From a virus (taxonomy: Duplodnaviria; Caudoviricetes): a stretch of DNA of 64,000 nt. How positions within the stretch are numbered: the stretch's first letter is position 1; every line of letters starts with the position of its first letter. The stretch is taken from the IMG/VR virus record IMGVR_UViG_3300044645_001661; one strand, written 5' to 3'. Of the stretch, positions 25,352 through 41,142 are shown one piece after another. The translations under genes and the position numbers were made by a program. The notes under the pieces were generated by a model. That model was not told where the DNA came from. It made no database searches and saw nothing but the letters and a program-made list of their open reading frames with translations.

Positions 25352-26782
25352 TTAGTAACCTATTTCTTTAGAAGAGTCGTCATAATCTTTTGCATATATT
25401 GGTTCAAGTTCCATGAATTGTAAACTTAGATTATATGAAAACATTGAATGACTTTTGTTGTCTCCATTTTCCATAAAATCTTCATTAAATGTCATATAAG
25501 AACCATCTGGAGTGTAGTCAACACTACATGCTTGTAATGCACATTTTTTTATTTTATTAATTCCTTTGTGTGGTTTTCCTTGATAAAAATATGATATTTC
25601 ATAAACACAAGGTGCTTTTAAAAACAAATCTTTTGGTGTAGTCACTACTGCCATGGTTTGTTTAAAAAATCTAATAATTCCTTTTACTTGTTCTGCCTCT
25701 TGTATTGATCTTGGTGATAGTTTAAAATTAAATGTAAAAGGTCTTAAAGTAGGACCATCAAATAGTAGTTCTAAGTTTGGGTTTACAATCGCACCAGTTA
25801 ATCTTGCTGCTAAATTTGTTTGTACTGCTTGTTCTGCTGCATATAATGCAACAAAGTTTTTTATTTGTGAGGACACTTCACCATCTTGTGTCGTTCTTAA
25901 AGCATTCTCTAATGCTGCTGTAGCACCTTCTGCACCGCCGTTTATGGTTCCTAAAGCTAGATTTGCACCTCCCATCTGTAATGGTGTTATTGTACCCTCA
26001 TTCCACTTAACACCATTTTGATCTGTAACTGAAGGTTGAATTGGGAGTCTTACTGATCCTTTTATTTCTTGCTTTAAATCTCTTTCTTTAAAGCTGAAAA
26101 TATTACCACTTGCACCATTAACATCTCTCCCACCATATTTAAATGCTTTAAAAACAATATAATCTGTTGGTTGTGATCCTTGATTTAATGGGTATTTATA
26201 ATCTGCATATTGATCTCTTTGTCCTACTCCTTCAAAATTTAAATTTGCTATTCCAGACAAATCTACAGGAGTTGATGTGTTATCTTGATCATTTTGATTT
26301 GCTACATCACCACCAGTAGCGGCAGAGTCTGCTGGGTTTGATGATGCTGGTGGAGTTATAACTCTAGTTTGTTCTTGTTTTGATGTTATACCACTAGATT
26401 CTAATGCCCTAGTTACTTGTACTGATGTGTTTTTATTTAAATTACCGTTTGAATTTTTTAATGAATTTGCGGCATCTGTTCCTAAAACAGGTTTTCCATC
26501 TGAATCTTTTAATAATTCCCAAGTTTGACCATCAGAGGTTTTTGCTGCTGGAACCCAACTTCCTTTATTTGTTACTACACCAGCTAAAGTTATTTGTCCA
26601 GAAACATTTGCAGGTTTCCAATAATAAAGTGTTGTAGTTCCACCAGATACTGCTGCTCCACCAGATTGTTGGGATATTGCAGTTGAAGTTCTATAAAATC
26701 CATTTGTAGTGTCTTTACCAGTTCTAGTTCCAAATTCATTACTACAAATTTGACCTTGGGGGCATTTAAAATTTCCTGCCAT
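25352..26782 (-). CDS. 48: Baseplate tail-tube cap gp48
   Basis: NPNLELLFDGPTLRPFTFNFKLSPRS..EA..V..IIRFFK, CALQ..SVDYTPDG, L.F.ELEPI. Confidence 0.88.
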   Translation of the reverse strand: MAGNFKCPQGQICSNEFGTRTGKDTTNGFYRTSTAISQQSGGAAVSGGTTTLYYWKPANVSGQITLAGVVTNKGSWVPAAKTSDGQTWELLKDSDGKPVLGTDAANSLKNSNGNLNKNTSVQVTRALESSGITSKQEQTRVITPPASSNPADSAATGGDVANQNDQDNTSTPVDLSGIANLNFEGVGQRDQYADYKYPLNQGSQPTDYIVFKAFKYGGRDVNGASGNIFSFKERDLKQEIKGSVRLPIQPSVTDQNGVKWNEGTITPLQMGGANLALGTINGGAEGATAALENALRTTQDGEVSSQIKNFVALYAAEQAVQTNLAARLTGAIVNPNLELLFDGPTLRPFTFNFKLSPRSIQEAEQVKGIIRFFKQTMAVVTTPKDLFLKAPCVYEISYFYQGKPHKGINKIKKCALQACSVDYTPDGSYMTFNEDFMENGDNKSHSMFSYNLSLQFMELEPIYAKDYDDSSKEIGY

Positions 26783-27909: not shown

Positions 27910-28773
27910 ATGGCGGGTAAAAGTCTTCCAGCGATAAATCCTGGGGTATCAATGTCTAGAATAAAAAGTAGACTATTGCAGCCTGCTTTAACATCTAATT
28001 ATTCTGTTATAATTGCTCCACCAGGTAAAGCCTCTTTTCCTAGACAATCTGGGGATAAGGGGTTTGCTTTGTCATTCATAGAAAAACAAATAGGAAAACC
28101 AGTAGATAATGAATTATTAGAACTATCTTGTTCTGAGGCATCATTACCAGGATCATCATTTGCAACAATTGATATTAATAATGATTATATGGGGATAACC
28201 CAAAAACATGCATACAGGAGATTATATGATGATAGGGCAGACTTTACATTTTATGTGACTCAAGATAGTAACTATTATCAAATTAGATTTTTTGAGGCAT
28301 GGATGAGATATATTGCAAATGAGCAATATATTCAGGGAGTTTCTGCTAATGATAAACTTTCTTCCGCATCGATATCTAGAATACAATATCCAGAGTTCTA
28401 TAAATCAATTATACAAATTGTTAAATATGAGAGAGATTATGGCACTGGTAGATCATCTCAATCACCATTATTAATCTATAATTTTGTAGATGCATTTCCA
28501 GTGAGTTTAAATTCTATTCCAGTATCTTATGAATCTTCTTCTTTATTAAAAGTTACTGTATCTTTTTCTTATACTAGATATGCTGTTGATGATTTAACAA
28601 CTGTTGCTGAGACAACAGTTCCTGATAGAAATCCAAATTCAACTGGAAATCCAGATGTTCCACCTGGAACTACAACAGTTCAGTTAAATGGATCAAGAGG
28701 AACTGATATTCCAAGAACTGTTGCTATACAGGATGGTAGATCTACATTATCGCAAATATATGATGATGTATAA
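27910..28773 (+). CDS. 54: Baseplate-tail tube initiator gp54-like
   Basis: CSEASLPGS.F.T, RRLYD...FTFY, FEAWM.YI, AFPVSL.SIPVSY...LKVTVSF.Y.RY. Confidence 0.75.
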   Translation: MAGKSLPAINPGVSMSRIKSRLLQPALTSNYSVIIAPPGKASFPRQSGDKGFALSFIEKQIGKPVDNELLELSCSEASLPGSSFATIDINNDYMGITQKHAYRRLYDDRADFTFYVTQDSNYYQIRFFEAWMRYIANEQYIQGVSANDKLSSASISRIQYPEFYKSIIQIVKYERDYGTGRSSQSPLLIYNFVDAFPVSLNSIPVSYESSSLLKVTVSFSYTRYAVDDLTTVAETTVPDRNPNSTGNPDVPPGTTTVQLNGSRGTDIPRTVAIQDGRSTLSQIYDDV

Positions 28774-28820: not shown

Positions 28821-29540
28821 ATGCCTTTACCAAAAATTTCTGCCCCAACATATGAGTTGGAATTGCCTTCTACTAGTCAAGTTATACAATATAGACCATT
28901 TTTAGTAAGAGAAGAAAAACTATTAGTTTTAGCATTGGAGAGTGAAGATACTAAACAAATTACGACAGCAATTAAAACAGTTATTAAAAACTGTATACTT
29001 ACAAAAAATATAAAGGTAGAATCATTACCAACATTTGATATTGAATATTTGTTTTTAAATATTCGTGGAAAGTCGGTTGGTGAAGAACTTGAAGTAAATA
29101 TTATTTGTCCTGATGATGAACAGACTACAGTTCCTGTAACTATTGATATTGATGATATTCAAGTGCAAAAAAATGATAAGCACAAAACACAGATTAAAAT
29201 TGATGATTCCATAATGATGGAAATGAAATATCCTTCATTGGATCAATTTATTAAGAGTAATTTTGACTTTACTGGTAATAGTAATATGGAGCAATCTTTT
29301 GATTTAGTTGCTTCTTGTGTGGATAAAATTTATACGGAAAATGAAGCATGGTCTTCTTCTGATGTAACCAAAAAAGAAATTGTTGAATTTCTAGATCAAA
29401 TGAATTCTTCTCAATTTAAAATGATTGAAGAATTCTTTGATACGATGCCAAAACTTTCTCATGAAATTAAAGTTACCAATCCAAATACTGGTGTTGAAAG
29501 TACTGTCGTACTGGAGGGCCTGTCAAGTTTTTTCGTATAG
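28821..29540 (+). CDS. 26: Baseplate hub subunit/assembly chaperone gp26-like
   Basis: MPLPKI..PTYELELPS, YRPFLVREEK.L, FDIEYLFL.IR.KSVGE, CP, FF..MPKL, ends EGLSSFFV. Confidence 0.85.
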   Translation: MPLPKISAPTYELELPSTSQVIQYRPFLVREEKLLVLALESEDTKQITTAIKTVIKNCILTKNIKVESLPTFDIEYLFLNIRGKSVGEELEVNIICPDDEQTTVPVTIDIDDIQVQKNDKHKTQIKIDDSIMMEMKYPSLDQFIKSNFDFTGNSNMEQSFDLVASCVDKIYTENEAWSSSDVTKKEIVEFLDQMNSSQFKMIEEFFDTMPKLSHEIKVTNPNTGVESTVVLEGLSSFFV

Positions 29541-29563
29541 CTCTAGTCCATATGGACTTGGAG
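29513..29563 (+). promoter_or_regulatory. Candidate -1 programmed ribosomal frameshift cassette
   Basis: GGAGG 29513-29517, slippery T TTT TTC 29528-29534, hairpin 29541-29563; the -1 frame is open into the ATG at 29552. Confidence 0.65.
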
Positions 29564-29719
29564 AATTATTATAAGTTGAATTTTTCTTTGATTCAATATC
29601 ATAAATATTCATTAACAGAGATTGAAAATTTGATACCGTGGGAACGGGACATTTACGTTACTTTATTGAAGGCTCATTTGGAAGAAGAAAAACTTAAACA
29701 ACAACAAAATGTCGGCTAA
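29552..29719 (+). CDS. 51: Baseplate hub assembly catalyst gp51-like (possibly the C-terminal part of a frameshift fusion)
   Basis: MDLENYYKLNFSLIQYHKYSLTEIENLIPWERDIYV; 55 aa, manually translated; no SD. Confidence 0.75.
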   Translation: MDLENYYKLNFSLIQYHKYSLTEIENLIPWERDIYVTLLKAHLEEEKLKQQQNVG

Positions 29720-32111
29720 TAAACCAAAGTTTATAGATAAATTTTGGCCAATATCTACTATTGTAGCGAGTAGAACTGGGCAATATAAAAAAATACTTGC
29801 TCAACGAATGGAAGTGAGCAAGTATTTAATTGAAAATAACTTTGGTGTGAAGGCAGATAAAGTAGCAGATACTTTTATTAACGCATATTTGGCGTCTGAT
29901 AAGGATTATCCAGCACCAATTGAGTCTGTACAAAATCCACAATCCAATAAAGATTTTAGTTTACGTGACCAGTATATTTTATTTTTGTGGAATTACTATG
30001 TAAATGATAAAAGTAAAAAGACAAAAATACCAAAAGAAGTTCCACCTAAAGAACAATCTAAAAGTAATGTTCTAGATCCTTCTGGTGCATTAACTTTATA
30101 TGAAGGTACTAAAGAAGAAGACTTAGTTAATGAGGAAATTGATGAAAGAATATTAAAAATACTTGGGATACAAGATATTTTTGATATTGATTATGGTACT
30201 TATTTAAGTCTTCTAAAAGAAAAATTAGTAACAATAAGTATGGGGGATAAAAAAATCCCCAGAGAAGAACAGATATTATTGCAAGATGAATTTAAAAGAG
30301 TAAAGGGAAAGGTTGGTAGATTTAAAGTAAGAAGTAAAAAAATAAATGCAGATAATATTGGAACAACTGGTCCAATAAGAGTATCTAAACAGCAATATTT
30401 TCTTGCTGGAAAAGTTTCTGTACCTGATGTTTCTAAAGAATCTGCAAATATTGGGAGTTCAATAAAAAAAGATATTGAAGCAATAAAAAATTCTATAATT
30501 TCTATTGCCTCTCTTCTTGCATCTCAAAATAAATTGATTCAAAAAGATGCAGAGAATCAAAGAAAAATTGGTGAAAATTTAAAAAGGGGTAAAAGGGAAG
30601 AAGACTTAGAGAAAAGAGATAACAAGTTAAAAACATTAGCATCAAAAGTCTTAGCACCATTCCAAAGTATTCTTGACAAAATAATTAATTTTATTGTTTG
30701 GACTTTGCTTGGCCGTTTAATGGTCAAATTTATAGATTGGATATCGGATAAAAAAAATAAAAAGAAAATTGATACTTTAGTTAGATTTATTGGTGATTGG
30801 TGGCCTGCATTACTAGGAGCATTTTTATTATTTGCAACTCCTTTAGGTGGATTTGTTAGATCTATCATCGGAACAGTTACCAAATTAACATTTAAACTGA
30901 GTAAATTTGCAATTCCAAAATTACTCAACTTTGTAAAAGCAAATCCTGTTACAGCAGCTCTTATTGGTGGTAGTATTGCTGCTGGAGTTGGTGCTTATGC
31001 ATCTACACAACAAGTTGATAAAACAAGAAAAGAAAATAAAAAATCTGATCCATCTACAGTATTACCTCAAGAAACTGCAAAAACTGGTAAAGGACCAGGT
31101 GCTGCACAATTATCACAAGAGCAAATACAGAGTCGTGGATTTAATATGTTTAGAGGTGGTGGATTGATCCCTAAATTTGGGGATTATCAGAAACCTACTC
31201 CAATTAAAAATATTGGATTTGAAAGTGGTGGTACTATCACAGATGATACTGGTGTTAGAATTGCTGGAGCTGGGAAAGATACTCAGTTGATTGCTGCTCA
31301 ACCTGGAGAGATTGTTATCTCTAAACCAGCAGTTGATAAGTATGGGGCAAACTTCTTCTTAGGATTAAACAAGTCTGGTGGAGGAACTAACGTTCCTAAA
31401 ATGGTGAATAATATTCAATTGGCTGCTGGTGGTGGAATGGTTGGGGCATTAGTTCCAGAAAAACCATCTGCGGCTGCCAAGAAATCTGTTTTTAATCCTG
31501 AGGTTGCTAATAAAAAATCCATGATGAGTCTTAATAATGTTGTGAATGTTGCAAGTTCTTTGGATCAAAATAAAAAATTGACAACTCCAACAAAAATGTT
31601 TGGTGATACCTCAGATACTTTACAAAATGTACCAACTGCGAACAAAAAATCAAGTCAAAAGGCACCTTCTATTAAACCATTTTCACTCAAACCTCCAAGA
31701 ACACAACCAAATAATAAACCTTCTAATTTACAAATATCTAATGACATAAATTCAGTTTCTATAAAAGACGCTGCTTTACAATCATTTAGACCATTATCAC
31801 AAAAAATGCCTTTCATTGTACCATTTATTAATAATGCAATGACAATGATAAGTGGTGTTGGTGATACCCTAGTTGATCTTAGAAAAAGAAATATTAATAT
31901 ACGACCAAATATTAAACAATATATTCCAGAACCACCAAGTGGAAGATCTAAATCTAATGTTATTACATTACCTCCAGTAGTAAAACAATCTACAGAATCT
32001 TCTGGAACTAGAATGAATGCTATAAGAGATGTTGAAGATTTTCCTGCATTTATGATGAGTTCTCATCGAAAAAATAACATTCAAATATACGGTATAGGTG
32101 GTATAAACTAA
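29709..32111 (+). CDS. Large tail/baseplate-associated protein, tape-measure-like
   Basis: Coiled-coil and Gly/Ala-rich helical segments (IGDWWPALLG), GGTITDDTG...DTQL motif; position after gp26/gp51. Confidence 0.55.
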   Translation: MSANKPKFIDKFWPISTIVASRTGQYKKILAQRMEVSKYLIENNFGVKADKVADTFINAYLASDKDYPAPIESVQNPQSNKDFSLRDQYILFLWNYYVNDKSKKTKIPKEVPPKEQSKSNVLDPSGALTLYEGTKEEDLVNEEIDERILKILGIQDIFDIDYGTYLSLLKEKLVTISMGDKKIPREEQILLQDEFKRVKGKVGRFKVRSKKINADNIGTTGPIRVSKQQYFLAGKVSVPDVSKESANIGSSIKKDIEAIKNSIISIASLLASQNKLIQKDAENQRKIGENLKRGKREEDLEKRDNKLKTLASKVLAPFQSILDKIINFIVWTLLGRLMVKFIDWISDKKNKKKIDTLVRFIGDWWPALLGAFLLFATPLGGFVRSIIGTVTKLTFKLSKFAIPKLLNFVKANPVTAALIGGSIAAGVGAYASTQQVDKTRKENKKSDPSTVLPQETAKTGKGPGAAQLSQEQIQSRGFNMFRGGGLIPKFGDYQKPTPIKNIGFESGGTITDDTGVRIAGAGKDTQLIAAQPGEIVISKPAVDKYGANFFLGLNKSGGGTNVPKMVNNIQLAAGGGMVGALVPEKPSAAAKKSVFNPEVANKKSMMSLNNVVNVASSLDQNKKLTTPTKMFGDTSDTLQNVPTANKKSSQKAPSIKPFSLKPPRTQPNNKPSNLQISNDINSVSIKDAALQSFRPLSQKMPFIVPFINNAMTMISGVGDTLVDLRKRNINIRPNIKQYIPEPPSGRSKSNVITLPPVVKQSTESSGTRMNAIRDVEDFPAFMMSSHRKNNIQIYGIGGIN

Positions 32112-32112
32112 A

Positions 32113-35100
32113 ATGGCTGTATTAGATCCTAAAAAATTATTACCATCTTCTAAAGAAGAAAATAAAAAGGCATCTTATAGTAATGCTACTCGATTTTTAG
32201 TACCTGCAAAGAACGTACAGTATAGAGATACTGCACCAGTTCCTCAAGAACTTGAGCAACAAGAATCTAATAAAGATTTAAACAAAGATATTTTAATAAT
32301 AAAAGAAAAAGTAATATCTATAGAAGATATTTTAAAAAAAAGTTTAGATTTACAAAAGAAAACGCTAATTGGTAAGAGTAAAGAATTAGAAAATAAAAAA
32401 AGGGTAAAAAAAGAGAACATTTTAGAACAAAAAAAAGATAAATCACTCCCTGGAGGTTTATCTATTCCCACTAAAAGACTGGGATTACTTGATAGTATTA
32501 AAAATTTTGTCACTAGCACTTTACTTGGATTTGTTTTAGTAAGATTAGTAAAATATCTTCCACAAATAATTGAGTTCAGTAAAAAATTAACTCCAGCAAT
32601 AACTTTCATTGAAAGTTTTATTGGTGGAATGGCTGATAAACTAGTCAGTTTTATTGAAATTGGATATGGTGTTTATGATAAAGTTAGAGATACTATCAAA
32701 AATATTGGTGGGGAAAATCTCCAAAAAACATTTGATCAATTCTCTGGACAATTAAACACATTTATTAATCTTGCTATAATTGCTGGAATGTCCACCATAG
32801 GTGGAACTGATTTTGGAATGGGTAAAAAGAAACCAAAAGGTGGATTTGGTAATCAAAAAGGTATTAGTGGAGGGAAACAATTACCAGCAAATGATAGACT
32901 CAATCGTTATTTGAATCGTGGTAAAGAAGCAAAATTAATTGAAAGAAAATTTGGTAATAGTGCAGCAAGATATTATGAAGAACTAAGAGATTCTGGTAAA
33001 AATTCTTCACAAGCATTTAAAGAAGTTAAGAAAAGATTTCAACCAAGAGGATTATTTAATCGCAGAAATATTTCTGGACTTGCTGGAGATGGGCAAACTG
33101 CAGGACAAGTTGGAAGAAGGGGAATTGGAAGAACTGCTAATAGATTTGCAGCAAGAACTTTTGGTAAAGGTGGTGCAAAAATTGCTAGTGGTGCTACTAA
33201 GGCACTTGGTAGATTTCCAATTATTGGACCTTTAGTTGATTTTGCTTTTAGATATTTTGTTTTACGTGAACCTTTAGGGAAAGCAACTGCGGGTGCAGTT
33301 GGTGCTGGAGTTGGGCAAGCACTTGGAACTTGGCTGGGTGGTACTGTTGGTGGTGTTGCTGGAAGTGTAGTTCCAATTATTGGTAATTTAATTGGTGCTG
33401 GTGCTGGTGCTGCAATTGGTGGACTACTAGGTGGATTGATTGGTGACCAATTGGGTGTGAGTTTATATGAAACAATTACTGCTTATCAAAGACCTGAAAA
33501 AATTGAAGGACGTGCTAAGGGTGGACAAATATCTACACGAAGTGGAAAGCAAGTAGGTGGAAAAATACAAAGAACATTTAAACGAACAAAACCAAAACCA
33601 CCCAAAATATCTGAAAGACCAGTTCAAATTGGTAAAGATGTTGGTGGAAGAGATGTAATAGAAAAAGTATTTAATCCAGAGGATCCAAAAAATTCTCAAC
33701 AAATGAGCTCTTTGAGGGTTTTAACAACTGCGTCTAGTGAGCTTAAAAAACCAAACAGTTCATTTTTTGGACAAATTATGGGCGTTGGTGTTGATCTTGT
33801 AATGGGTCAAAAACCAAACAAAAATTTTTATGACCGAGTTGGAAATGCTTTTGGTTCCGTTATTCAGCAATTGATTGATGCAAATGCTGATATAGCAGTT
33901 AATGATACTGCAAGATCTATTTTAGCAATGGCTAATGGTGGAATAGTTCCTACTATGTTGTCAAATGATAAATTAAATTTTGGTGAAAGAGTTGGAAATT
34001 CTGTTGCTGGAATGTTTAGACAATTTGTAGAAAGGCAATCTGATATAATTTTAAATTCTATTAAACTAGAGTCTGAAAAAACACCTCCTGCTGGATCTGT
34101 TACTGGAGATTCTACTGTGGGGATGGATGGAGAACTCGCTGCTGGAACTTTATCGAGGGGTCAAATAAGTATTGAACAACTTGTTGGATTAGCTAAAGGT
34201 GCTGGATTTAGTCAATCTGATGCCGTAATTATGGCTGCAATTGCTATGGCAGAATCTGGTGGAAATTCGAACGCACATAATAATAATCGAGCTACTGGAG
34301 ATAACTCTTATGGATTATGGCAAATTAATATGATTGATAGTCTTGGACCAGAAAGACTTAAACAATTTGGAATTTCGAATTATGAACAGTTAAAAGATCC
34401 CGTAATTAATGCACATGCTGCTAAAAAAACAAAAGAAAGTCAGGGATTTTCTGCCTGGTCAGTTTATAAAAGTGGTGCCTACAAGTCATATTTAAACGCT
34501 GCACAAAGAGCTTCAGGATCTCCAGCGATTACGGTATATAAACCATCTACTGGTGGAAATATTGATCCAAATATGAAGATGGGATCTCAACAAGGAAGTT
34601 TGCAATCAGTGAGATCTTTAGCTGAAAGTATGGGAGTACCATTATTTTCATCTTATCGCCCAGGTTCTAGAGGATTTCATGGTGTTGGTAGAGCAATGGA
34701 TTTTTCGAATGATAGTAAAGGACTGGGAACTTCACAACAACTTGCATTGGCAAAAGAAATTGTTAAAAGATATGGAAGTTCTGTACAAGAATTGATATAT
34801 ACTCCTCTTGGATTTGGAATATCTGGGGGTAAAAAAGTTCCTTTAACGCATTGGGGTCCTCCTTCAAAATCTAAATGGGCTGGTGGAGATCCTTCCAATA
34901 CAAATGCTGCTCATTATGATCATGTGCATGTTGCTTTTAAAAAAGGTGGATATACTGGTGATGGTGGTGTTGGTATGCTTCATAAAAACGAAATGGTTAT
35001 GTCTTCAAAAGCAGTTAGTTTATTTGGAAGAGAAACTTTTGAAGCAATGAATGAGATGGGAAATAAAATGCATGATATGAAACCATCTGCAAAAATATCA

Positions 35101-35295
35101 AAAGTAAATAAAAAATCTTATGCTCCAGAAAGTATAAAATCACAAGCATCATATGAGTCTACTGGAATGAAAGTTGTAATACTTCCAATACATGAGAGAA
35201 TTAAATCTACATCTACTATTGGATCTGGTGGAAAAATTCCTACTATTGGAAGATCCGCACACATAGATAATAGTATCGAATCGGCACTAGCATGA
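32113..35295 (+). CDS. Tape-measure-like protein with lytic transglycosylase and peptidase-like domains
   Basis: Gly-rich GAGAAIGG segments; AIAMAESGG...SYGLWQIN (SLT-like); HGVGRAMDF...HYDHVHVAF (His-Asp-His metallopeptidase-like). Confidence 0.65.
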   Translation: MAVLDPKKLLPSSKEENKKASYSNATRFLVPAKNVQYRDTAPVPQELEQQESNKDLNKDILIIKEKVISIEDILKKSLDLQKKTLIGKSKELENKKRVKKENILEQKKDKSLPGGLSIPTKRLGLLDSIKNFVTSTLLGFVLVRLVKYLPQIIEFSKKLTPAITFIESFIGGMADKLVSFIEIGYGVYDKVRDTIKNIGGENLQKTFDQFSGQLNTFINLAIIAGMSTIGGTDFGMGKKKPKGGFGNQKGISGGKQLPANDRLNRYLNRGKEAKLIERKFGNSAARYYEELRDSGKNSSQAFKEVKKRFQPRGLFNRRNISGLAGDGQTAGQVGRRGIGRTANRFAARTFGKGGAKIASGATKALGRFPIIGPLVDFAFRYFVLREPLGKATAGAVGAGVGQALGTWLGGTVGGVAGSVVPIIGNLIGAGAGAAIGGLLGGLIGDQLGVSLYETITAYQRPEKIEGRAKGGQISTRSGKQVGGKIQRTFKRTKPKPPKISERPVQIGKDVGGRDVIEKVFNPEDPKNSQQMSSLRVLTTASSELKKPNSSFFGQIMGVGVDLVMGQKPNKNFYDRVGNAFGSVIQQLIDANADIAVNDTARSILAMANGGIVPTMLSNDKLNFGERVGNSVAGMFRQFVERQSDIILNSIKLESEKTPPAGSVTGDSTVGMDGELAAGTLSRGQISIEQLVGLAKGAGFSQSDAVIMAAIAMAESGGNSNAHNNNRATGDNSYGLWQINMIDSLGPERLKQFGISNYEQLKDPVINAHAAKKTKESQGFSAWSVYKSGAYKSYLNAAQRASGSPAITVYKPSTGGNIDPNMKMGSQQGSLQSVRSLAESMGVPLFSSYRPGSRGFHGVGRAMDFSNDSKGLGTSQQLALAKEIVKRYGSSVQELIYTPLGFGISGGKKVPLTHWGPPSKSKWAGGDPSNTNAAHYDHVHVAFKKGGYTGDGGVGMLHKNEMVMSSKAVSLFGRETFEAMNEMGNKMHDMKPSAKISKVNKKSYAPESIKSQASYESTGMKVVILPIHERIKSTSTIGSGGKIPTIGRSAHIDNSIESALA

Positions 35296-36784: not shown

Positions 36785-39118
36785 ATGGAATTTGCTGGAT
36801 CTTTTTTATTTGAATCGGATAAACCATGGTTAATATGGGAAGGAATTGTTGCACCTAGAAGTGAATGGCCCAGAGATGATGAGGGTCTTGAAACTAGAGA
36901 GCAATTACAAAATTGGGCTTATCGTGTCAAGGTGAGAATACAACATGTTCATCCTGCGGATAAAAAAATACTTCCAGATTCTGCTCTTCCTTGGATTGAA
37001 GTCCCTACAACTATTATGGGATCTGGGCATAAAGGTACTGGAATAACCCCTGGAATTACTCAAGGAACTAGAGTTTGGGGTATTTGGGGAAGTCCCTCTA
37101 CAAAAACCAATCCCATAATGTTGGGTGTTAAAGTAAATAATGATCAAACAGAATTAGTAAAAACTCAACCATCTGACGCAGCATTTACTCCTTACAGTGG
37201 ATATACTCCTGAAGATATTGTCGCTGGATATGATGTACCTTTAGCAAAGGGATTACCTTTAGAAGGAATAAATTATCCAAATATTTGGAGTATTTCTGAT
37301 TTAGACATATTAAATGAACCTAAATTTGCTGTAGCAGCACCATCAGACTGTGAAAAAATTCCTTTAAGAGGAATTCAAAAATCAATTCAAGGTTTAATAC
37401 AAGATATTGAAAAAGTTCAAAGTCAATTGAAAAGATGGCAAAATTCTGCACAAGGTTGGATTGCTGATAAAAAAGCTTACATTCAAAAATTAATTGACAA
37501 AGCGGCAAAATTTATTTCTAAAGCACTCAAATGGGTATTTGAAGAAATTAGAAAATATGTTTTGGAACAAATAAATGATAAAACAAAAAAACTTTATTAT
37601 TTGGTAAATCCACCAGATAGAGATAAAGTAAAAGCTGCAAAAGATACTGTTGTAGAATTAATAATTTGTTTGTTTAATAAGTTAATTGCCAATCTAATTA
37701 AAATGGTTGGTAGATTTTTATTTAATGCTTTTGATAAATTTATCACTGTTCCTGAATGTGTAGTTGAAAACTTTATTGCCAATTTATTAGGTAATATATT
37801 GGGTCTTGTTAGTGGACTAGTAGATAAAATACTTGGAACTTTATCTTCTATTTTGGGTACAGTTTTTAGTATCGCTGATGGTATTCTTGGACTTCTTAAA
37901 GCGATTCTTGGATTTTTCTTATGTGATGAAAAACAAGAATGCCCACAAGCTAAAGAATGGGATATATTTGAAGCTGGAGAACCTGGATCTATTTTTGATT
38001 TCGATTCTATTATAAGTAAGGCTAAAGGTATTGCTGCTAGTGTATCTGGGTTATCCAGTATTGATGATTTGAATATTAATTTCTCCAACATGATTTCTGG
38101 TAAAGGATCTGCATTTGATGCTTGTAATACTGGACCAGTATTTTGTGGTCCCCCCGCAGTTCAAATTTGGGGTGGTGGTGGATCTGGTGCCATAGGAAAT
38201 GCTATAATAAGTGCTTCTGGAGATTTATTGGGTGTTGATATAATTGCAGGTGGATTTGGATATACTGAAGCACCATATGTTAATTTTAAAGATCCTTGTG
38301 GAAAAGGTAAAGGTAGTAGAGGTAGAGTTGTAATTGATGATGATGGTAGTGGAAATGGAACTGGGTCCGTATCAAATGTAGTTATTTTAGATGAAGGGTA
38401 TGGATATTTACCCTCACCAAATGGAGATCTTGGTGGTGATGGGAGAACGTGGGCAACAAATAATCAAACAATTGTTCAAAGATCTAGTGGTAGTTATGAT
38501 CTTCCTTATGATCCAGGTGAAGAAATAATTCCAGAGTTAAGAGGTGGTGATCGAGTAATTAGGCCAGAAGATAGGACTATATTGAACACTATTGCCGTTT
38601 TGGGTGGAGGTTCTAATAATCCTACTAATTTTGATCCTACTAATATTGGAATTGCTGGAAGTAGTACTGGTAGTTCAAGTATAGGATTTGCTGGAACTGA
38701 TACTGCATCTAATAATATTTCTGTACCTGGAACTGGTATTGGTGGAGGAACAGATTTTAAATCTTTCCCAAGAATTAATGTTGGTTCTTATCCTGTAATT
38801 TTATATCTTTGTGGTATTGATATTGAGAATGCTGGTATAAATTATTCTAGTGAAGATAAAATTGTCATAGAACCAAATACTGGTGGAGCTGTTGTAGAAC
38901 CAATTTTTGGACCATTTGGTGTATTAACTGGAATTAATATTATTGATGGTGGAAAAGGATTTACTGAAAGACCAAATATTTACATTAATTCTGAAACAGG
39001 TTATAATGCAAAATTGAATCCTATATTTTGTGTTAGTAGATTTGGTGATGATACTGATGGTGAAGTTCCCAAAAATGTCAATATTATTAGAGTAGTAGAT
39101 TGTGTGGGTAAAGTTTAA
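36785..39118 (+). CDS. 5: Baseplate hub/spike gp5-like protein (OB-fold N-terminus, no lysozyme motif seen)
   Basis: YRVKVRI..HP...LPW; repeated I...G.GY..P modules in the C-terminal half. Confidence 0.6.
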   Translation: MEFAGSFLFESDKPWLIWEGIVAPRSEWPRDDEGLETREQLQNWAYRVKVRIQHVHPADKKILPDSALPWIEVPTTIMGSGHKGTGITPGITQGTRVWGIWGSPSTKTNPIMLGVKVNNDQTELVKTQPSDAAFTPYSGYTPEDIVAGYDVPLAKGLPLEGINYPNIWSISDLDILNEPKFAVAAPSDCEKIPLRGIQKSIQGLIQDIEKVQSQLKRWQNSAQGWIADKKAYIQKLIDKAAKFISKALKWVFEEIRKYVLEQINDKTKKLYYLVNPPDRDKVKAAKDTVVELIICLFNKLIANLIKMVGRFLFNAFDKFITVPECVVENFIANLLGNILGLVSGLVDKILGTLSSILGTVFSIADGILGLLKAILGFFLCDEKQECPQAKEWDIFEAGEPGSIFDFDSIISKAKGIAASVSGLSSIDDLNINFSNMISGKGSAFDACNTGPVFCGPPAVQIWGGGGSGAIGNAIISASGDLLGVDIIAGGFGYTEAPYVNFKDPCGKGKGSRGRVVIDDDGSGNGTGSVSNVVILDEGYGYLPSPNGDLGGDGRTWATNNQTIVQRSSGSYDLPYDPGEEIIPELRGGDRVIRPEDRTILNTIAVLGGGSNNPTNFDPTNIGIAGSSTGSSSIGFAGTDTASNNISVPGTGIGGGTDFKSFPRINVGSYPVILYLCGIDIENAGINYSSEDKIVIEPNTGGAVVEPIFGPFGVLTGINIIDGGKGFTERPNIYINSETGYNAKLNPIFCVSRFGDDTDGEVPKNVNIIRVVDCVGKV

Positions 39119-39703: not shown

Positions 39704-40483
39704 ATGAAATTACCTGACGTAGAAGTTAAAAAAAGATTATTTGTTGGTGTTGGTGATCCGTCACTTGTATTGGGATTGGGACCAACAGAAATTAGAGGAT
39801 CTGCGTATGTAGAAGGACCAGAAGTTGTTGGAGATCCAAAAGTTTTTGGTGCAGGACCAAAAGCTACCTTGATGGTTGGTCCAAATAAAAACTCAGACTC
39901 TCCACCAAATATTATTCCTGGTGCTTTATGTACTGGTAACAATTCACCTTATTCATTAGGTGTAATTGGTAATGCTGCTATTTTTACACATCTCGATGTA
40001 AATGGTAACATTAGTGCTGGTAATAATATTATTGCTCAGGGTGAAGTGATGTCACGTTGTGGTGGGCATATTCTTTCTGCTAAAAAGAATTTTGACATTC
40101 CACACCCGACAAAAGAGGGGTGGAGACTTCGCCATACTTGCCCAGAAGGACCATCTAATGATGTATATTTTCGAGGTAAAACTAAAAAAAATATTATAGA
40201 ACTTCCAGAATACTGGTTAAATTTAGTTGATGAAGATTCTATAACTGTTAATTTAACACCGATTGGAATAAATCAAGACCTAGTTGTTGAGGATATTAAA
40301 GATAATAAAATTTATATAAAAAATAATGGATTCCCAATACATTGCTTTTATCATGTTTATGGTGAAAGAAAAGATGGTGAAAAACTAATTCCTGAATACG
40401 AAGGTTCTACCCCTGCAGATTATCCAGGTAATAATGATGAATACTCTGTATCTGGATATCATTATGATGTTAAGGAGGATTAA
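39704..40483 (+). CDS. Tail-associated protein with C-terminal KxFDIxHP domain
   Basis: KNFDIPHPTKEGWRLRHTCPEGP...YFRG...LPEYW...GERKD. Confidence 0.55.
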   Translation: MKLPDVEVKKRLFVGVGDPSLVLGLGPTEIRGSAYVEGPEVVGDPKVFGAGPKATLMVGPNKNSDSPPNIIPGALCTGNNSPYSLGVIGNAAIFTHLDVNGNISAGNNIIAQGEVMSRCGGHILSAKKNFDIPHPTKEGWRLRHTCPEGPSNDVYFRGKTKKNIIELPEYWLNLVDEDSITVNLTPIGINQDLVVEDIKDNKIYIKNNGFPIHCFYHVYGERKDGEKLIPEYEGSTPADYPGNNDEYSVSGYHYDVKED

Positions 40484-40485
40484 AA

Positions 40486-41142
40486 ATGGCTGAAGAAGGA
40501 ACTTTTGTATCAAAAAGAGTTGGACGAAGAAATTGTGGAGATAAAGGTATTAAAGGACCATTCTCTACAAAATTTGATTATATTTTAAAATCTTTGACTG
40601 GGGATGATGATTATCCAAAAGAAGCATGTACTCCCTGGATTCATTATAACGTTAAGGTTGGAAATTTAAAGGCGGATCAAATTGTTCAAGCAGCAGATGT
40701 TAAAACTGCATCAGTTAGTTCATTAAATGCAAAGGCTGCAGTTTGGGATTCTAAGAAATCTTTTGATATTCAACACCCAACAAAACAAGAACATCGTCTT
40801 AGATATATTTGTCTGGAAGGACCAACTGCAGATGTATATTTGCGTGGAAAACTAGTAAATAACTCTTATATTGAGTTGCCAGATTATTGGAAAGATTTTG
40901 TTGATATGGAAACTTTAGCGATAACGTTAACTCCAAATGGACATTGGCAAGAATTATTTGTCGATAAAATTGAATGGGGTAATAAAATTCATATCAAAAA
41001 TAATTCTGGAACTTCAATTAATTGTGATTATGTTGTGTTTGGTGAACGTATTGATACAAATAAAAATATTTCTGAGTATCAAGGCTTGACACCAGCAGAC
41101 TATCCAGGGGATAATAAGGAATATAATATTAACGGTAAGTGA
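40486..41142 (+). CDS. Paralog of the upstream KxFDIxHP-domain protein
   Basis: KSFDIQHPTK..RLRYICLEGP...YLRG...LPDYW...GERID...TPADYPGDN. Confidence 0.55.
   Translation: MAEEGTFVSKRVGRRNCGDKGIKGPFSTKFDYILKSLTGDDDYPKEACTPWIHYNVKVGNLKADQIVQAADVKTASVSSLNAKAAVWDSKKSFDIQHPTKQEHRLRYICLEGPTADVYLRGKLVNNSYIELPDYWKDFVDMETLAITLTPNGHWQELFVDKIEWGNKIHIKNNSGTSINCDYVVFGERIDTNKNISEYQGLTPADYPGDNKEYNINGK

Follow-up and report, generated by a model that had tools for sequence, protein, structure and literature searches.

A probable programmed −1 ribosomal frameshift at a conserved slippery heptamer between gp26-like and gp51-like sequences of T4-like phages

In lambda (gpG/gpGT) and P2 (E/E+E′), and more generally in the tail assembly chaperone (TAC) genes of long-tailed phages, a conserved −1 frameshift has been described (Levin, Hendrix & Casjens 1993; Xu, Hendrix & Duda 2004; both as summarized in PMC5009743), and the conserved tail-chaperone frameshift of Xu, Hendrix and Duda is a hallmark of this group of phages. 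For T4, a 2016 recoding review gives gene 60 bypassing only, while gp26 and gp51 of T4 are listed as hub assembly chaperones, with gp51 being essential, of unknown function and not found in the particle (Leiman et al. 2010, PMC3004832). Full-text literature searches returned no published report of a gp26/gp51 frameshift. Here we describe a 64,000-nucleotide (nt) stretch of DNA from a lake-water T4-like phage (IMGVR_UViG_3300044645_001661; hereafter “the window”, with coordinates counted from its first letter), in which a gp26-like gene ends on a slippery heptamer just upstream of a gp51-like open reading frame (ORF). Judging from comparative sequence evidence, we consider it very likely that a programmed −1 ribosomal frameshift site lies in the gp26-like gene and that the slip is real.

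The 3′ end of the gp26-like gene reads AGT TTT TTC GTA TAG, which places T TTT TTC in X XXY YYZ register. Starting with the final base of this heptamer, the −1 frame is free of stops and runs through a formally “intergenic” linker (CGT ATA GCT CTA GTC CAT) into the ATG at 29552, located 11 nt past the gp26-like stop and within a predicted hairpin; no Shine-Dalgarno (SD) sequence was found between this stop and the ATG. On re-reading the sequence, an earlier preliminary description of this DNA proved right in three respects, namely the in-frame heptamer at the end of the gp26-like gene, the open −1 frame leading into the ATG, and an ATG of the gp51-like ORF that has no SD of its own and is buried in a stem. 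In the mechanism that we favor, most ribosomes would translate AGT TTT TTC GTA, stop at TAG and release a short form of 239 amino acids (aa), while a fraction would slip back by one base with two tRNA-Phe on U UUU UUC, read CGU AUA GCU CUA GUC CAU AUG… and end at 29717-29719, giving a long form in which a 6-residue linker joins the gp26 body to the gp51-like domain. Simulation of this slip adds 61 residues and yields a product of 299 aa and 34.6 kDa, compared to 27.3 kDa for the short form. Across the junction, the simulated fusion reads …EGLSSFF-RIALVH-MDLENYYK… (in other notation, GLSSFF followed by RIALVHMDLENYYKLNFSLIQYHKYSLTEIENLIPWERDIY), with VTNPNTGVESTVVLEGLSSFFR and IALVHMDLENYYK as its predicted junction peptides. 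Heptamers of the type H_HH.U_UU.Y, including U_UU.U_UU.C and U_UU.U_UU.U, rank among the −1 heptamers that shift most efficiently in E. coli (Sharma et al. 2014, PMC4066793), and tandem slippage of two tRNA-Phe would therefore be mechanistically ordinary. As in lambda G/GT, the proposed slip takes place on an X XXY YYZ motif near the 3′ end of a small assembly gene and would give a short and a C-terminally extended product with a common N-terminal body. Unlike in lambda, the zero-frame stop follows the heptamer after a single codon, such that the two frames overlap by only a few nucleotides.

The evidence that carries this reading is the conservation of the slip site among relatives. From the window, from IMG/VR loci found with five divergent queries and from 14 GenBank phages, we collected 323 loci that comprise the end of a gp26 homologue and at least 200 nt downstream, corresponding to 263 unique junctions. 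An in-register T TTT TTN lies near the end of gp26 in 320 of the 323 loci, and its spelling in the unique junctions is TTTTTTC (234), TTTTTTT (22) or TTTTTTA (7). Among the carriers are T4-like cyanophages of Prochlorococcus and Synechococcus (P-SSM4, P-HM1, S-RIM2, S-CAM1, ACG-2014e, MA10), Vibrio phage KVP40, Aeromonas phiAS5, Pseudomonas pf16 and Milchi, Stenotrophomonas Mendera and uncultured marine clades, with identities to the window protein as low as ~23%. The alignment of junctions across cyanomyoviruses that the preliminary description had proposed thus shows that the terminal FF with T TTT TTN and the open −1 frame are conserved, and this conservation reaches well beyond cyanophages. 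The codon preceding the T-run varies between AAT, AGT, GAT, TCT and ACT, which encode four amino acids, and ends in T in 263/263 junctions. The first Phe of the terminal FF is likewise TTT in all 263, compared to TTC at 62% of the other FF sites of the same genes, where the dipeptide is spelled TTC TTT (158), TTT TTT (87), TTT TTC (21) or TTC TTC (20) and is preceded by G (135), A (116), T (18) or C (17). Seven lineages have TTA (Leu) as the second codon, a change of residue that leaves the slippery pattern intact. Because of this control at other FF sites, the T before the run and the TTA lineages, we conclude that selection acts on the heptamer at the nucleotide level, beyond the FF motif. 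By these comparisons, the heptamer is kept beyond the demands of the encoded amino acids and of codon bias, and the combination of heptamer and frame arrangement is far beyond chance.

The position of the zero-frame stop is more variable than the heptamer itself: it follows one codon past the heptamer in 240 of the 263 junctions and eight codons past it in 19. The later stop characterizes a marine clade (L278-L332, e.g., L278:1880-1935, …GLSDFFVSASPTTT*), in which the −1-frame Ile codon is ATC instead of ATA and therefore creates no TAG at the usual spot, which shows that the zero-frame stop is not critical in its position. The only non-T4 exceptions to the heptamer are Vibrio phage K452 (L093:2200-2240) and Ackermannviridae SD25 (L094:2220-2260), which have CTT TTT G and GTT TTT C in its place, retain an in-register T_TTT tetramer and show a small-ORF ATG that overlaps the gp26 stop (TAATG). 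These two phages may have switched to translational coupling, or they may rely on low-level slippage of a single tRNA; U_UU.U ranks among the better tetramer motifs for shifting in E. coli (PMC4066793).

We then turned to the sequence downstream of the heptamer. The −1 extension is free of stops in every locus over 56-68 aa, while the same frame contains stops upstream right up to the heptamer. Column entropy is highest at the zero-frame third position upstream of the slip site (1.57 vs 1.09 and 0.77) and at the −1-frame third position from the first base past the heptamer (1.36 vs 0.80 and 0.60); the would-be intergenic 12 nt already display the −1-frame periodicity (1.46 vs 1.04 and 0.67). 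The same switch at the heptamer is seen inside the window's own clade (68 unique sequences). Across relatives, the linker follows the consensus R-(I/V)-(A/G/S)-(L/M)-x-H; in the window's clade its Arg is spelled CGC, CGT or CGG, and the His preceding the ATG is CAT in 53 sequences and CAC in 14. This drift between CAT and CAC is synonymous and therefore at odds with a His codon that remains untranslated because the ATG acts as the start. Taken together, these patterns show that the −1 frame is under protein-coding selection from the slip site on, the linker included. Furthermore, in ~125 of the 263 junctions, among them S-RIM2, S-CAM1, ACG-2014e, Milchi and phiAS5, no ATG occurs before extension codon 18, and the first one falls within the conserved YYxxNFxL(M)QHHKY domain. 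As such an ATG lies past the conserved L..YY.xNFxL segment, a product started there would miss part of the domain. Many GenBank records leave the extension region unannotated, none of the 14 GenBank phage records contains a joined coding sequence, and gene callers place the start of the extension ORF at scattered points, the earliest lying 17 codons 5′ of the slip site and the latest at an internal Met (profile position 20). A profile of the extension found 2,179 cluster representatives at E≤0.001 among the 1.84 billion representatives searched.

Comparison with T4 provides a further view on the two products. The gp26-like protein is a full-length member of PF12322 (254.2 bits over residues 9-238; gathering score 24.5), and this family spans all of the T4-type gp26 (196 bits) but only residues 1-201 of the T4-type gp51 (193 bits), leaving a tail of ~50 residues. 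It is this tail that the extension profile matches, at residues 207-249 of gp51 from EnA02, a close relative of T4 (25.2 bits), and at residues 208-244 of T4 gp51 (23.1 bits), and a profile of simulated fusions aligns to gp51 over positions 24-284 of 300, gap-free through the junction. From these profile matches and the gap-free alignment it follows that the short form has its equivalent in T4 gp26, and that T4 gp51 is an in-frame version of the long form. Consistently, the gp51-like domain of the window is homologous to the last ~45 residues of the T4-type gp51, and the gp51-like ORF also matches the C-terminal positions 241-280 of phrog_150; phrog_634, its own family, bears the label “baseplate hub assembly catalyst”, and the label PF28602 Gp51_C was found on one relative in precomputed annotations. 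T4 gp26 (208 aa) and gp51 (249 aa) are hence direct homologues of the predicted products, with gp26 resembling the short form including the C-terminal GLxxFF (…GLKEFFELL* in T4) and gp51, collinear with the simulated fusion, combining a PF12322 body with a tail homologous to the −1-frame extension. The difference is that T4 uses two paralogous genes, which are divergently transcribed in both T4 and EnA02, without recoding, whereas the single locus of the window would yield both products. In T4 gene 26 (L337:7803-8429) the FF is spelled TTC TTT (GAG TTC TTT GAG TTA CTA TAA), and gene 51 (L337:8480-9229) reads GTG TTT AAG at the equivalent junction. By sequence comparison, the T-run is missing just where a separate gene provides the long form and no slip is needed. 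The proposal of the preliminary description that a −1 frameshift gives rise to a 239-aa protein and a 299-aa fusion thus gains strong support from the comparative sequence evidence and from the collinear homology to T4 gp51. As a separate observation, the non-cyanophage members of the gp26/gp51 family contain paired Cys motifs (…C..C… and …CPxCG…) that resemble a Zn ribbon, and the second Cys pair is lost in the window and in cyanophages (VTNPNTG).

Several observations weigh against a programmed slip at this site. The slip is deduced from sequence conservation. The terminal FF is in addition conserved as a protein motif, and conservation is therefore partly at the amino acid level; the ATG at 29552 would allow a free 55-aa peptide as well; and in the other genes of the window T TTT TTY occurs six times in register, as opposed to three and two times out of register, with these small numbers giving no sign of avoidance. 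The flanking elements likewise vary. The preliminary description had recognized a complete cassette of the kind known from E. coli dnaX (tau/gamma), and the window indeed resembles dnaX in having a slippery heptamer flanked by GGAGG 10 nt on its 5′ side and by a hairpin 6 nt on its 3′ side, but the SD and the hairpin are unconserved among its relatives and the cassette is no property of the family. Also unlike dnaX, the heptamer of the window is U-rich (A AAA AAG in dnaX) and the shift adds residues, while the shifted frame of dnaX ends almost at once and gives the shorter product. GGAGG at the 10-nt spacing is present in 25 of the 263 junctions, and most others have GAAGG or GAGG because conserved Glu-Gly codons impose them. 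The hairpin of the window has a folding energy of −11 kcal/mol (z = −1.87), and 8 of 200 shuffled sequences are at least as stable, so that taken alone it is only modestly above chance; in close relatives, the top 4-5 base pairs (bp) of the stem are kept and the lower half is paired in 13-50%. The 45 nt 3′ of the heptamer fold at −10.3 kcal/mol, compared to −5.3 kcal/mol in control windows of the same loci (mean z −1.6), and the ACG-2014e clade has a stem of 9+4 bp (~−15 kcal/mol) that is 93% paired vs ~50% in slid controls. RNAalifold found no common structure in consensus folds over whole clades, and the hairpins differ from clade to clade. Given this variation of stem and SD between clades and relatives, we regard only the heptamer as conserved; the SD and the hairpin would at most modulate the slip in particular lineages.

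A rival explanation does without any frameshift: the gp51-like sequence would arise solely as a free 55-aa protein, through independent initiation or termination-reinitiation at ATG 29552, and the T-run would be kept for the FF motif or by AT-rich codon bias. The FF is indeed conserved even in T4 gp26, and TTT makes up 71% of the Phe codons of this AT-rich genome; codon bias would nevertheless often place TTC at the first Phe, as it is at 62% of the sites elsewhere, instead of the invariant TTT, and the invariant T before the run extends over five codons. While the ATG stands at a fixed distance of 11 nt from the stop throughout the window's clade, and such close spacing is typical of translational coupling, it has no SD and is buried in a stem, the linker 5′ of it shows −1-frame coding selection, and in about half of the lineages no ATG precedes the midpoint of the conserved domain. 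K452 and SD25, where the ATG overlaps the stop and the heptamer is absent, fit initiation at a separate start, whereas in T4 gp51 the covalently joined form is the functional one. Overall, we grant this explanation a small probability.

Alternatively, the slip could occur during transcription, with RNA polymerase adding one U in the T6 run and standard translation producing the long form; by sequence logic, one extra U yields exactly the same protein. Productive slippage by bacterial RNA polymerases has been reported for runs of about nine or more, and the run considered here is merely six or seven T, which is short for such an event. Still, homopolymer T runs can provoke slippage of RNA polymerase, and UUUUUUU is under-represented in all frames of E. 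coli, possibly for that reason (PMC4066793). What speaks for the ribosome over RNA polymerase is the conserved codon register (X XXY YYZ, with T before and usually C after), which matters to the former and is irrelevant to the latter, and the motif itself is among the efficient ribosomal shifters; we therefore see only a slim chance for transcriptional slippage. In RNA data, the locus left a trace in a single metatranscriptome, with a 4% word share and as contigs. The frame break could finally be a sequencing or assembly indel, or the mark of a decaying pseudogene, the true gene being one continuous ORF. Homopolymer runs are error-prone, and a profile search of public data gave two apparent in-frame fusions (P0134, P0125), but the two-frame arrangement recurs in 320 independent loci, including the finished isolate genomes of P-SSM4, P-HM1, KVP40 and pf16. 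Moreover, the gp26-like/gp51-like stretch of the window is near-identical, and two-frame, in ~19 lake-water metagenome DNA runs of different studies, which argues that the break is not an assembly error; we give this possibility next to no credence. P0134 and P0125 (L338, L339), considered as proof of a natural in-frame form, were rejected as homopolymer errors because gp26 is broken into 2-4 pieces on these Pilon-polished long-read contigs from ENA, and a word-indexed protein search for a natural in-frame fusion returned only 239-aa close relatives. In their place, T4 gp51 serves, by its sequence, as the natural in-frame form. Such spurious gp26-gp51 fusions in long-read assemblies call for caution when fusions are mined as evidence.

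If the programmed frameshift is accepted, the question arises what the two products do. The short and long forms would be the counterparts of T4 gp26 and gp51, their ratio would be set by the efficiency of the slip, and the pair would act as G/GT-like assembly chaperones for the baseplate hub and the tail-tube initiation complex. By analogy, we rate such a chaperone role as an even bet. The predicted fold of the gp26-like protein provides one line of evidence. An AlphaFold (AF2) model of the whole protein reached a pLDDT of 91.3, and its N-terminal ~90 residues folded alone reached 86.5. The N-terminal domain matches the HK97 tail assembly chaperone 2ob9 (VIA Z 7.8, root mean square deviation 3.5 Å over 85/104 residues, Foldseek prob 0.87), 3fgx (Z 7.7, Foldseek prob 0.95, TM 0.56), B. 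subtilis YqbN 3klu (Z 7.3) and V. cholerae PLE ORF19 5ir0 (Z 5.2-5.5), compared to at most 4.1 for unrelated chains. Two independent aligners gave this same small set of chains, with either the whole model or the N-terminal domain folded alone. YqbN is an XkdN-type tail chaperone of a PBSX-like prophage. According to these models, the fold of the N-terminal domain is closest, at moderate scores, to that of the HK97 tail assembly chaperone, a likeness to G/GT that we count as supportive, not as proof. On a side note, ORF19, encoded by a Vibrio cholerae element like the phage-inducible chromosomal islands, groups structurally with the TAC set, which hints that a phage satellite may encode a TAC-like protein.

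The preliminary description had further suggested that gp26/gp51 of T4-like cyanophages may be an equivalent of G/GT, an analogy that gains support from three points: a tube-fold gene lies upstream, T4 gp26 and gp51 are hub chaperones in the literature (PMC3004832) and the N-terminal fold resembles that of TACs, but no TAC sequence family is matched. Two parallels to lambda concern the surroundings and the counterpart in T4: the gene adjoins a tube-fold gene in a tail or hub module, and at least one T4 counterpart (gp51) is needed for assembly and absent from virions. To the points that weigh against the overall reading one has to add here that the Foldseek E-values of the TAC-fold matches (0.12-0.8) are not significant and the scores middling, and that a Pfam search of the gp26-like protein gave PF12322 only and no TAC family, leaving it outside the TAC sequence families. 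A sequence-profile search of the PDB likewise gave no TAC, and Foldseek with the whole model gave nothing significant. A predicted complex of the extension with the tube-fold protein scored 0.00 (partner pLDDT <50) and is evidence neither way. Unlike the TACs of ~100-140 aa, the gp26-like protein belongs to a different family, PF12322, of ~240 aa with extra domains, and the T4 counterparts serve baseplate-hub assembly. Moreover, a tape-measure gene directly downstream, as in lambda, is undemonstrated. The preliminary description had spoken of tape-measure-like genes at this place, and the composition of the 1060-aa protein agrees with this, but neither this protein nor the 800-aa protein matched PF25671 T4_Tape_measure or other tape-measure families, and searches gave only weak atlas leads (0.82). 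The tape-measure identity of the two genes is therefore unproven, a point that weakens the overall reading.

It is tempting to speculate that gp26/gp51 are the long-missing G/GT equivalent of the T4 superfamily, the ancestral and commonest state being one frameshifted gene, as in cyanophages, KVP40-like phages, the Aeromonas, Pseudomonas and Stenotrophomonas phages and marine T4-likes, and T4 proper having replaced recoding by a duplication that left a short paralog (26) and a long one (51). We find the odds of this scenario evenly balanced. If it holds, the “catalytic” essential gp51 of T4 would be a GT-type protein that uses its C-terminal domain to recruit a tube-fold or hub partner. Gp51 would be identified as the long form of gp26, tying T4 hub assembly to the G/GT paradigm, and the family would offer a natural case of recoding and gene duplication as interchangeable routes to two proteins. 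It would also correct hundreds of annotations of T4-like genomes, in which the gp51-like domain is unannotated or has arbitrary starts.

Table 1. Features of the gp26-like/gp51-like locus and its neighborhood in the window
Feature	Position	Strand	Matches and remarks
gp48-like tube cap	25352-26782	-	hub module
gp2 and gp4	between gp48-like and tube-fold gene	-	hub module
Upstream tail-tube-fold protein	27910..28773	+	PF23849 Phage_TTP_2 2.9e-17; phrog_45 tail tube
gp26-like gene, zero-frame product (predicted short form, 239 aa, 27.3 kDa)	28821..29540	+	PF12322 T4_baseplate 1.3e-75; phrog_150 2.6e-80
SD-like GGAGG, 10 nt 5′ of heptamer	29513..29517	+	possible stimulator, this phage only
Slippery heptamer T TTT TTC, X XXY YYZ register	29528-29534	+	in register with zero frame
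Linker R-I-A-L-V-H, −1 frame, formally “intergenic”	29534-29551	+	CGT ATA GCT CTA GTC CAT
Zero-frame stop TAG, one codon past heptamer	29538-29540	+	
Hairpin, 9 bp, one bulge, 4-nt loop, encloses ATG 29552	29541-29563	+	starts 6 nt 3′ of heptamer
gp51-like ORF, 55 aa if ATG-initiated; C-terminal domain of predicted long form	29552..29719	+	phrog_634 5.2e-26
Two large downstream proteins (800 aa; 1060 aa), candidate tape measure/hub proteins	29709..35295	+	
1060-aa protein with SLT domain, glycine zipper	32113-35295	+	SLT_3 PF18896 1.1e-17
423-aa tail protein	after 1060-aa gene, before gp5-like gene		hub module
gp5-like hub/lysozyme	36785-39118		hub module

The genes around the slip site form a hub module (Table 1) in the order gp48-like, gp2, gp4, tube-fold, gp26-like, gp51-like, 800-aa, 1060-aa, 423-aa tail protein and gp5-like. 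The end of the gp51-like ORF and the start of the 800-aa gene overlap by 11 nt (29709-29719, ATGTCGGCTAA), suggesting translational coupling of the long form, or of the small ORF, to the 800-aa gene. From N to C terminus, the 1060-aa protein has a coiled region, a glycine zipper, an SLT lytic transglycosylase domain and an H…D…HxH-like motif (…HGVGRAMDF…HYDHVHV…); its composition is tape-measure-like in spite of the missing family match. As read from its sequence, the C-terminal motif suggests a second cell-wall hydrolase. Finally, two adjacent paralogous genes at 39704-40483 and 40486-41142, both matching phrog_17490/phrog_28536, of unknown function, apparently represent a tandem duplication.

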